DNA of 64,000 nt from Eledone cirrhosa (lineage: Eukaryota), in NCBI GenBank assembly GCA_964016885.1, contig OZ024757.1, positions 38,006,001-38,070,000 on the forward strand, read 5' to 3'. The notes under the pieces were generated by a model. It saw only the letters and a program-made list of their open reading frames with translations, searched no databases and was not told the DNA's origin. This document shows positions 10,358 to 41,682 of this stretch, in pieces. Numbering within the stretch: the first letter of the stretch is position 1; the number at the start of each line of letters is the position of its first letter. A program made the position numbers and the translations under genes.

Positions 10358-11119
<762 letters not shown>

Positions 11120-11149
11120 AGATCAAAAGATGATCAAAAGAGTTCCATG

Positions 11150-11220
11150 TATTTTATTATGCGCATTTCAAAAACAAATATCATCATGCAATAACATTTG
11201 CGTTTTCGTCAGATAAAATA
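11150..11220 (-). ncRNA. Type I hammerhead ribozyme, intact core
   Basis: UAUUUUAU-CUGACGA-[16-bp stem II, one mismatch, GCAU loop]-GAA-AUGCGCAU-A|AUAAAAUA. Stem I is a perfect 8 bp and stem III is palindromic. Predicted cleavage between 11158 and 11157. Confidence 0.88.
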
Positions 11221-11234
11221 GGGAGACATGATAT

Positions 11235-11324
11235 GAAGGTTAAAACACACTTGTGAATAGTGCAGTTTTAAATCAACATATGTTGATTTAAAACTGCACT
11301 GTTCACAAGTGTGTTTTAACCTTC
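11235..11324. repeat. 45-bp-arm spacerless palindrome, one mismatch
   Basis: gaaggttaaaacacacttgtgaatagtgcagttttaaatcaacat|atgttgatttaaaactgcactgttcacaagtgtgttttaaccttc. Confidence 0.97.
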
Positions 11325-11918
11325 TATCTTTCGCGTATGCCTGTGAGTGCCGCTGTATATATATGGTAAACAACTAATCATTAGCTTTTTTTTTCGTTTA
11401 ATTTTCATAAGGATGTCCATATAATCCTTGATATACCTTTTCCCTAGCATTACATTTCTTCAATGTCCTGCAGCCTTTCAACGCGCTGTTTTTGATGATG
11501 ATGATTATCATCCACATGGTGGTGGTGCTGGTGCTAGTTGTGGTTATGGTGGAGTATCTCATTTCCCATTCGCAACAAGTAGAATTTGGCGAAGATTCCT
11601 TCCGTCATAGATATTCTAGTTTACAGTGAGATTAACTTTGCAGCTAATAGCCCAAACACACTGTCAAATAACATCTTCTTTTAAGGTACTTTTTGACAAG
11701 GCCACACGCGACTACATTCCCTTCAGGAAGAATACTAATGTACACTCAAGGGGAATACTAATGTACAATGATTAGCCTTATCCATAGCGCAGACCGAATT
11801 CATCATCTATATACACTAACACAGAAATGATACTCATATAGTCATATATTCAGACCAACTAAATAGCCCGTAGTTTCTTAGTTTCTCGCAGCCACTCACT
11901 CCCTACGATTTATGTATG

Positions 11919-29931: not shown

Positions 29932-31599
29932 CCCTCTTCCTGCTAGACCAACCGTAAATCTAATATATCCCTTCCATATACTGTACCGATTATGTTGTTA
30001 TTTTTGTTTACCTTTTACACACACACACACACACACTATATATATATATATATATGTATATCGACCCTTAACACCCAGGGTAATCGTAGTGAAAAACGGG
30101 GGTACGGCGTTTCTTGGGCATTTTAAAATATGTATAGCACATGTCCTCTTTAGTTACAAACGCAAACAATTTGTTCCAAAGATATATACATATGTATAGA
30201 TAGAGAGTTAGATATATATATATAGAGAGAGAGAGGGGTGGGGGAGAGATGGAAAATATATTTAGTGAAAGAAATCGACCATAGTACTACATTGGTGCGT
30301 TTTTATCGACCAGAAAAGTATGAAAAGCAAGGTCATCTCTGTGAGATTTCAACCTCCTTCAAATACTGCAGTACATTCCATTCGACTATGTTAATTCAAC
30401 GTCTTCGTTACATAATTACTCACATCAAAATGTTCGAATCAGTTTAAATCTTGGATTAATATTTCAGATGGTATTTCAGATGATAAAAAATCTCCTACCA
30501 CGTAATATGTTATTTTTTAACGTTACTCTACTTACAGTTCCAGTATTGAAAATAAAATCATTCATCTCTGTTATATCCATTTGGACAATTACATACGTTT
30601 CCATAATAATAAATACCTTATTTTTCTTTTACTGATTTAAAACTATTGACAGGCCTTGTGGTATTATAGATGCAAGTTTTCTAATATTCTGTGTTTAACT
30701 AGAGATATATTCAGGGAAATTACTCAGAAACATTAGCTGCAAAACTATACATAATTTATAAAAGCAAAGGCGTTATGCTGACAGATAAAACCATAACATT
30801 ATATCGAAGCACGTTAAAACCTGTAACAGCCTAATTGAAAATTGTAAACTCATGTAAATTAAAAAGAAATTAAGCTTAATTTGCATACAACTTAAAACAA
30901 TCGTCACTCTAAATCTAATGAGTTAACTAATTATAGAACACCAGATATATTCTTTATGCATATTAATTAGCTTAGTATATTCATTGTTTGACAGTTTCTA
31001 CAGTTGCAGACATTAATCTTGGTGTGTAAGAAGTTACACAGATACTTTTAGAATTTAATATACGAATAGGCTATATTACCGGTCCTGGTAAAATAAACAA
31101 ACATGCTTTTTTAAGCTTTATTTACCAGTCCCAGTAAAATAGACATCCAGGCTATTTTGCCGGTAAATATTAATAGTGTTACTCCCTTTACTCTACCCAT
31201 TTACCTGTTCCAGCCATCAGGCTGGAACACCGCCCTTGTTGCTACACGTTCTATATCCAGCCTGTTTTTGCTAGCCATTGGTGTAGGAGGGAGTTCGTTG
31301 CTGCTGCCCTGAGGTTACCTACCTCCCGTGATAAGGGCTCATCTGGGATCCTAGAGTAAAGTGTCAAGATCTTAGGTTTAGATTTCAAATTGTCTAACAA
31401 TTGGTGGTGAAAATAAATAGACTTCTGTGTGATGTTACTTTTAACATTACATGCTTTTATAATAATAAAAAGTATTTACCGGCAAAAGAGCCGATGGGGG
31501 GGGGGGGTCTATTTTGCCGGGACCGGCAAACCACCCTTTTAATTTAAAGCGAATTGCCAGAATCGTTAACGAATGTTGCAGATGATTCGATCAACCGAA

Positions 31600-40571: not shown

Positions 40572-40631
40572 GCATATATATATATATATTATTCAAAATA
40601 TTAATAAATGGATACATTCACATAATCAAAA

Positions 40632-40703
40632 TATGTTTTATTATATATATTTCGGAGGTACTGTGCTGTTTTTTTAGTACGTCCTCATCAGATAAAATAC
40701 ATA
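40632..40703 (-). ncRNA. Type I hammerhead ribozyme, intact core
   Basis: UAUG-UA-UUUUAU-CUGAUGA-GGACGUAC(15 nt)GUACCUCC-GAA-AUAUAUAU-A|AUAAAA-CAUA. Predicted cleavage between 40642 and 40641. Confidence 0.87.
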
Positions 40704-40780
40704 AATTGATGTATGACATACCTCAACTGTGCTGATGGTTCAATTCCAGTCTTGACAGTGACGTATGCCATACATCAATT

Positions 40781-40852
40781 TATGTATTTTATCCGATGAG
40801 GACGTATTAAAAAAACAGCACAGTACCTCCGCAATATATATAATAAAACATA
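40781..40852 (+). ncRNA. Mutated HHR copy (U4C, A13C), likely inactive
   Basis: ccgatga..gcaa in the right arm of the fold-back. Confidence 0.75.
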
Positions 40853-41069
40853 TATTTTGATTATGTGAATGTCTTCATTTATTAATATTTTGAATAATAT
40901 TAATAACTCCAGAAAACTTCTTTGTTGAGTGCTTTTAATCTATTGTAAAACTATATTCATTGAATAATCAATGAAGGTTGTTTAACATTTGGTTATATAT
41001 ATATATATATAAGCATATACATATACACATAAACATAAATATACACAGGAAATACACACACACACACAC

Positions 41070-41682
41070 ACACATGGTTGCTGCCAACTCGTCTTCGTGT
41101 ACGACCACTACATTATATCCATTTAGGAGAACCCCTACCGATGCGCTGAACGAGTGTGACTTTTTAGTCCAGCCAGCGACTTGAAAACTCTGGTACAAAC
41201 ACTACACTTGTGACAATTATTGACACATAGTGCTGGGCCCATGGTACCATGTGACGACAAGTGCAGAGAGATCTCCAGATATAAAGCAATGCCTGTGTCG
41301 TGAAGCTTTTATAGTGAACAAAGGCACTGCACAAAGCCAGTCCCACTCTCTTAACCAAGATGATATTTACCAAAAAGAAAAACAAGTCAACATCATTGGA
41401 TACCATTAGGGTTGCAGGTGTTATATCAGTTTTCCTTCTCCTAGAATTCTGCCTTGACAAAGGCTAAGGGGTCATCTCTCCCGGTCATTTTGGATGGCCA
41501 TTGACTCTTAAGAACTCCTTTGCTCTTTGAGAGGTTTTGTTTTTAGTCCTGCAGGATGTCCAAAGTGACCCTCCTCGCCAAGACACCTTGGTGGGGTTGC
41601 CAGTTTAGTCGCCAACGACCCGACCATTAGACAAATTGTACGGGGATACATGTTACCATTAGCACCAACTGGTGACCTGGTA
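41070..41682 (-). mobile_element. Probable RTE LINE 5' UTR fragment
   Basis: cagttttccttctcctagaattctgccttgacaaaggcta resembles RTE 5' UTR motifs; GC content is elevated. Confidence 0.45.

Follow-up and report, generated by a model that had tools for sequence, protein, structure and literature searches.

Penelope-like elements (PLEs) of the Hydra clade, including Hydra-1_Obim, are characterized in Craig et al. 2021 (PMC8557442) by a DKT motif, a CxCX5C linker, the absence of CCHH, CxxC and CxH motifs near the end of the protein, a hammerhead in the pseudo-LTR (pLTR) and (TA)n targets. Complex PLE insertions (PMC8557442 Fig. 2; PMC3846280) consist of head-to-head arms, including an inverted 5'-truncated copy, with a tail at one end and carry a TATA box and a TCACT initiator-like motif near the 5' end of the pLTR, as described in a PLE of a rotifer (PMC3846280). 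The origin of the inverted arms and one-sided tails is listed among the unsolved questions in PMC8557442. The minimal hammerheads of PLEs are of type I, with a long helix II and a palindromic helix III (Cervera and de la Pena 2014, PMC4209133), and the same source describes a dimer model for such palindromic-helix-III ribozymes and reports opposite-strand hammerhead pairs 100-700 bp apart. In the case of PAc, Poseidon of Anolis carolinensis (Frangieh et al. 2024, PMC11167929), the protein is described as extending both strands in vitro from two internal RT start sites, which bound a tail, at AT-rich targets and with ribozyme cleavage dispensable.

The window analysed here, the whole stretch of 64,000 nucleotides from Eledone cirrhosa, contains an insertion with this layout, which is genuine but unremarkable as a PLE insertion and belongs to a new family of the Hydra clade. 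The layout itself is already known, the inverted 5' copy and one-sided tail from PMC8557442 and the opposite-strand hammerhead pairs from PMC4209133; the value lies in the mechanistic statistics of the family and not in the window locus. In comparison with the published descriptions, the unit of the family is ~3.8 kb with a 1.1-kb 3' UTR, whereas Hydra families are generally <3 kb (PMC8557442), the tail is ~93 nt instead of 30-40 nt, and strict pairing of the arms and a 5' boundary have been counted, unlike for the insertions in the accessible parts of PMC8557442 and PMC3846280. The features of the locus, and of a second motif in the window used for comparison, are as follows.

40586..40762, minus strand: left, untailed pLTR arm, its 3' end at the fixed site A against (TA)n
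40636..40699, minus strand: intact minimal type I hammerhead, with C3 at 40691, G12 at 40653 and the predicted cut between 40642 and 40641
40755..40762, no strand: head-to-head junction, with an alignment overlap of ~7 nt
40763..40900, plus strand: right pLTR arm up to site A, beginning near reference column 48
40785..40848, plus strand: hammerhead with U4C (40794) and A13C (40832), which departs from the type I core at U4 and A13
40901..40993, plus strand: 93-nt tail ending at the fixed site B, followed by (TA)n, missed in the original prediction
40906..40930, plus strand: small hairpin ACUC-CAG...UUG-UU-GAGU just past site A
11112..11328, minus strand: comparison hammerhead of a different family, with one arm, a palindromic centre and a cut-off second arm

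The original prediction, made from this sequence alone, had proposed inverted arms of ~145 bp with outward-pointing hammerheads, and both points were confirmed: 40586-40730 matches 40755-40900 at 93% across 147 alignment columns, and the main block contains 7 substitutions and one 2-nt indel, giving 146-bp inverted arms, and both hammerheads face outward. Its extent of 40586..40900 was right at the start but too short at the end, since the right arm has a 93-nt tail that the left arm lacks and the insertion thus runs from 40586 to ~40993. The left arm covers reference columns 8-185, its 5' end coinciding with the preferred 5' boundary of the family (columns 8-10), and differs from the family majority by C14T, G94A and a 2-nt deletion, whereas the right arm displays T53C, U4C, C92T, A13C, A158C and C160T in addition to the G94A common to both; the C at 40762 may represent an untemplated G of the left arm. 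In full-length copies the tail stretch runs on into the 5' UTR and the ORF. The window copy is a pseudo-LTR-only, promoter-less and protein-free insertion in a TA repeat, without the ORF; TA repeats adjoin both of its outer ends, and a target-site duplication could not be read within the TA repeat at the insertion. TA repeats also dominated the repeat search of the whole window.

Inspection of the left arm revealed the predicted intact minus-strand core, with stem I UAUUUUAU, CUGAUGA (40691-40685), a G-C-closed stem II and GAAA (40653-40650), and the 3' part reads UAUAUAU, A at H17 and AUAAAA, helix III being the palindrome AUAUAUAU. All elements of the type I core are in place (C3-A9, G12-A15.1, U16.1, H17 and helices I-III), and helix III forms only as a homoduplex (-5.2 kcal/mol); under the dimer model (PMC4209133) the left-arm hammerhead is predicted to work as a dimer. 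The plus arm reads CCGAUGA (U4C, 40794) and GCAA (A13C, 40832), and the description of this core as broken stands as regards the two changes, although "broken" is better worded as probably strongly impaired, to judge from reports that U4C lowers activity in vitro while the viroid stayed infectious (PMC3088659) and that A13 changes cost 10-100-fold activity (PMC4075628). Public contigs, which may represent the assembled sample itself, show a depth of 43-48 and no other letter at 40832, backing A13C, and give no coverage at 40794, the position of U4C. Among the family arms A13C occurs in 1/248 and U4C in 6/229.

The hammerhead is not a chance match: a 12-mer of stem I and core occurs twice in the window, in the left arm and in the motif near 11150, and the family numbers at least 824 copies, the genome-wide exact matches of one 26-mer, with A13 in 100/100 of those listed. 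Rfam returned no hammerhead among the 10 matches of a local scan, nor among 150 of the 311 matches for the whole window, which were only noise from microRNA-like hairpins, and a hammerhead scan gave no match because it demanded four unbroken stem II pairs. In helix II of both hammerhead families (40800-40830; 11180-11210) three base pairs are followed by a C mismatch at position four, which is possibly a tertiary contact site. This C-C mismatch and the lack of an unpaired nucleotide between A9 and G10.1 distinguish the window hammerhead from those described in the accessible part of PMC4209133.

A first look gave 1,441 and 2,412 candidate copies of the two arms, the best of which match the left arm at 97-99% and the right arm at 93-95%, and the repeat family is young. 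A 22-mer spanning the 5' half of the core matched 6,363 times, 31 of them with U4C, but this number was rejected as the copy number of the family because it includes a sister family ~75% alike. The proposal that the arms are an inverted pseudo-LTR of a PLE was borne out by sister copies, in which the same pLTR is preceded by a 1.1-kb non-coding stretch and then by a broken ORF with RT and C-terminal GIY-YIG domains of Hydra type (L136, L137, L138 and L141). The protein matched an HTH_animal/RVT_1 cluster and a GIY-YIG cluster (32% of members) in the atlas, and RVT_1 itself was matched on a sister element at E=0.0038, below the cut-off. In L138 and L141 direct pLTRs lie 3.8 kb apart and the ORF starts ~60 nt past the tail, and the layout of EN+ PLEs is present, with partial tandems forming pLTRs, an inverted 5' copy and a tail at one end. 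DKT replaces DKG (ILVKSDKTNNLY in L137 and L138), the linker CNCRRKSEC corresponds to CxCX5C, CCHH is absent, one Cys stands in VYKC...YIG, and CNLC...E...N...CLH provides CxxC and CxH beside the conserved E and N. The position of the N-terminal RWK motif of the Hydra clade (PMC8557442) reads RWC in L138 (RRLRWCAF) and LSLR in L141 (RRLSLRAF), both copies being decayed. The 3' flank is TA-like in 110/132 A ends and 105/121 B ends, the ORF can be aligned by eye to the Hydra sequences in the supplement of PMC8557442, and the best named protein homologues are octopus proteins; a protein search for longer relatives found none. Judged from these motifs, we assign the family to the Hydra-clade EN+ Penelope-like elements as a new family, distinct from Hydra-1_Obim since the hammerhead sequence differs. 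The Neptune and Nematis clades were rejected, as DKG, a CX2-5CxxC linker and CCHH were not found, and so was a non-LTR retrozyme, which would be non-coding and in head-to-tail tandem, whereas the family is coding and the window copy head-to-head.

Several related arrangements were seen elsewhere in the genome. A 3.8-kb fold-back of the window family (L266:623-4177) has both arms reaching the endonuclease region of the ORF. Other PLE families adjoin or nest with the window family in six loci (L136, L137, L140, L141, L019 and L120), including further Hydra-type ORFs and DKG-type ORFs, and these families probably share TA targets. Three core matches at 65-nt spacing (L098, G000:C1:63697745-63697896) are a short tandem duplication of the 5' half-ribozyme of the sister family.

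In order to describe the arm ends we used 292 unique arms with an identity of at least 85% to a natural reference copy, hits cut at an edge having been dropped (373 unique hits before the identity filter); loci were picked by similarity or by exact patterns, which favours young copies. The 3' ends fall at two sites ~93 nt apart, with 121 arms ending at each of sites A and B and the other 50 at different positions. Among 84 close outward pairs, 63 combine A with B and 21 have one odd end, and there are none of A+A or B+B; the pairs found through internal patterns (n=58; 42 A+B, 16 odd) and the pairs at any distance (n=115; 81 A+B, 34 with at least one odd end) likewise include no like pairs. 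The tail can be on either arm, long or short. In LINE-1 (L1) twin priming the position of the second site varies and the copied segments are non-overlapping, whereas the window family has two fixed sites and its arms usually cover one common segment. The two would be alike in that the second DNA end primes internally and gives an inverted 5' part, and in the extra G at full-length 5' junctions (PMC11702581). The PAc start sites lie inside the ORF, whereas sites A and B both precede it, and the accessible part of PMC11167929 gives no strand difference in start site and does not report pairing, whereas the genomic pairs of the window family are never A+A or B+B.

The 5' ends are also defined. 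Arm starts are concentrated at column 10, which is the A of TCACTGCC and precedes C3 by 68 nt (55 arms, in a set where 30 loci had been retrieved by searching for the boundary itself). Directly before ACTGCC, 283 genomic copies have a base other than the template C, a few of them being substitutions in longer copies (4/51 flagged), and 60 copies continue upstream; a TATA motif is found at -32 in 16/22 upstream contexts, the boundary lying ~30 nt behind the TATA box. The base before the boundary is G in 146/283 copies, the G arms spanning many haplotypes, and the template base at this position is C in 63/67 longer copies. The G resembles the cap-derived G reported at the 5' junctions of full-length L1 copies (PMC11702581), but the signal is only moderate, as the control was only partly passed (28/55 versus 32/106, p=0.016; 10/26 versus 6/21 with AT-rich flanks). 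The boundary is reached by 44/109 A arms but only 8/92 B arms (p=3e-7), and the window copy conforms to this. The predicted ribozyme cut site is spanned by 167/186 arms, and most templates were thus uncut; starts at the ribozyme cut itself were considered and rejected, since 8 arms start at columns 124-132 with no sharp peak.

In light of these data, it is probable that the locus arose as a Hydra-clade PLE insertion by two-ended priming in a TA repeat, followed by unselected decay of one core. The family, its ORF, the fixed 3' ends A and B, the strict pairing, the sharp 5' boundary and core decay at the background rate are direct observations. The RNA would start at the TCACT initiator (column 10), ~30 nt behind the TATA box, and would be uncut by its own hammerhead when copied; the TA repeat would be cut, one DNA end priming at A and the other at B, both sites being within the first 270 nt of the RNA, and the two cDNAs would run toward the RNA 5' end and be joined head to head, often via short microhomology. 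The outcome would be a pair of hammerheads that face outward, each lying downstream of an antisense copy of itself and unable for that reason to fold in read-through RNA; one of them would decay after insertion without selection. The in vitro behaviour of PAc (PMC11167929), in which both strands are extended and ribozyme cleavage is dispensable as in our reading of the window family, fits two-ended priming. We also put forward, with somewhat less than even confidence, that the short fold-backs are run-off copies of the capped, ribozyme-uncut 5' end of the mRNA, made by a dimeric enzyme in an obligatory combination of one A (beside a conserved bulged hairpin) and one B, with the A-primed copy usually reaching the cap. 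If this is true, genomic insertions map the transcription start of a PLE and the order of its integration events. The one-A-one-B rule, the fixed 5' boundary and the uncut site yield predictions testable in the existing PAc in vitro system. A search of the literature, with subscription papers mostly outside its reach, did not find the one-A-one-B rule, PLE twin priming or a PLE 5' cap G stated.

The inverted arm could instead come from self-priming, by fold-back of the first copy or from an antisense template (PMC3846280), and the close relationship between the arms would agree with this: substitutions amount to 2.6% between the arms of a pair versus 6.0% between random copies, a rare variant is shared within 20/55 pairs versus 2.9% of random pairs, core changes are common to both arms in L263, L056 and L121, and many junctions have short overlaps. 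The arms of a pair mostly share one source, although shared variants could also reflect later conversion from arm to arm. In 8 pairs, however, the arms cover non-overlapping parts of the element and neither can therefore be a copy of the other, either arm can extend further 5' (37 versus 26, 5 equal) or bear the tail, and in a few pairs (the window pair, L040, L043 and L148) the arms disagree at linked family-variant columns, a sign of two templates or of later conversion; self-priming alone also leaves the constant one-A-one-B pairing unexplained, and we regard it as improbable. A related possibility is that the right-arm changes were present at insertion, the arms deriving from different source RNAs of which one was already core-mutant. 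The C158+T160 haplotype of the right arm recurs in 21 other arms but is absent from the left arm, and three other loci (L091, G000:C1:57010500-57017600; L120-L122; L134), among them a near-full-length sister element, carry U4C in both arms, so that core-mutant templates were copied or arms homogenised later. On the other hand A13C is unique among 248 arms, no other copy has U4C with A13C, the listed 26-mer matches all have A13 (100/100), and the rare G94A (5/235) is common to both window arms. This origin is compatible with the two-primer mechanism, and although unlikely for the window locus it has somewhat better prospects than self-priming.

It had also been suggested that the plus-strand core was knocked out by selection against cutting a plus-strand host transcript, or else lost by simple drift. 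In favour of selection, two of the 4-6 changes of the right arm fall at 11 core positions (p=0.03-0.07), although four other arms also have two core changes, and the right arm is more diverged than the left, with 7 departures from the majority versus 0 in the columns that both arms cover (p=0.016), which makes the window pair the least balanced of the 16 pairs that have at least 5 differences; this locus was picked for that feature, and 1/7 changes is at the junction and 2/7 are common family variants. Depletion of retrozymes in Xenopus introns and exons, reported in bioRxiv 10.64898/2026.07.22.740005, would point the same way. Against it, core decay matches the background: core and non-core changes against the majority were 39/2595 and 592/31310 (p=0.17), or 13/801 and 177/8324 in an arm set picked by a pattern outside the core, and between-arm differences affected 11/473 core versus 147/5856 other positions (p=1.0). 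Both cores are present in 43 pairs, of which 31 are intact; one core is broken in 9 of them and both are broken in 3, and paired and solo arms are similarly broken (20/122 and 18/99). In read-through RNA the ribozyme pairs with the upstream antisense arm, forcing the hammerhead fold amounted to 80 (plus), 85 (minus) and 89 kcal/mol (majority core), and the modelled pair probabilities of helices I and II are 0.0 even with the majority core; motifs with a palindromic helix III are also described as poor cutters as monomers (PMC4209133). The window could lie in a long intron, but no host exon was found and none of its 142 ORFs (at least 50 residues) has a host-gene domain, the two weak matches both being repeated elsewhere. 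One of these, a C2H2 finger at 41138-41308, 140 nt downstream, belongs to a high-copy LINE-like 3' end, and the PHD_3 match near 31570 has similar copies in two other loci. Selection on a host transcript is thus very improbable, and drift, as part of an insertion by two-ended priming, is the favoured reading. With their outward geometry the fold-backs would feed double-stranded RNA pathways and not cut host RNAs.

The LINE-like 3' end with the terminal C2H2 finger lies at 41075-41660 on the minus strand of the window and is young (5,056 candidates, 96% alike); we take the element to be RTE-like. An excess of mutations on tailed arms (66 versus 94 overall, p=0.03) is not claimed, since it gave 43 versus 56 (p=0.23) in the pattern-picked set with the window locus left out. 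A-to-G hyper-editing was rejected, with only 2 such changes.

The motif near 11150 (747 candidates in its family) had been said to match in stem I while stems II and III differ completely, as a case of structure conserved without sequence. The match in stem I is real, whereas stem III keeps 4/8 letters (AUGCGCAU versus AUAUAUAU), and the wider claim was contradicted: stem I is identical in sequence and only stems II and III are rewritten, which amounts to conservation of sequence. Helix II of the 11150 motif opens with A-U pairs. A bulged hairpin past site A, ACUC-CAG-(9 nt)-YUG-UW-GAGU, is common to the window, sister (CGG/CUG) and 11150 families (L091, L109, L204), and the changes among the three keep its pairing; the window and 11150 families are best read as related or co-mobilised, and not as convergent structure. 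The 11150-family copies are near-perfect palindromes with a fixed centre (14/18 identical, 4 small variants), a set that is biased because the query included the palindrome centre, and 15/18 pair a tailed with an untailed arm, the tail being ~85-90 nt on one arm (L203-L222). The fixed junction could be due to self-complementarity at the 5' end of the RNA. No ORF was found beside the 20 fetched copies within the flanks inspected. The spacing between C3 and the centre in this family, 68-70 nt, is close to that between C3 and the 5' boundary in the main family, and the agreement may be a coincidence.
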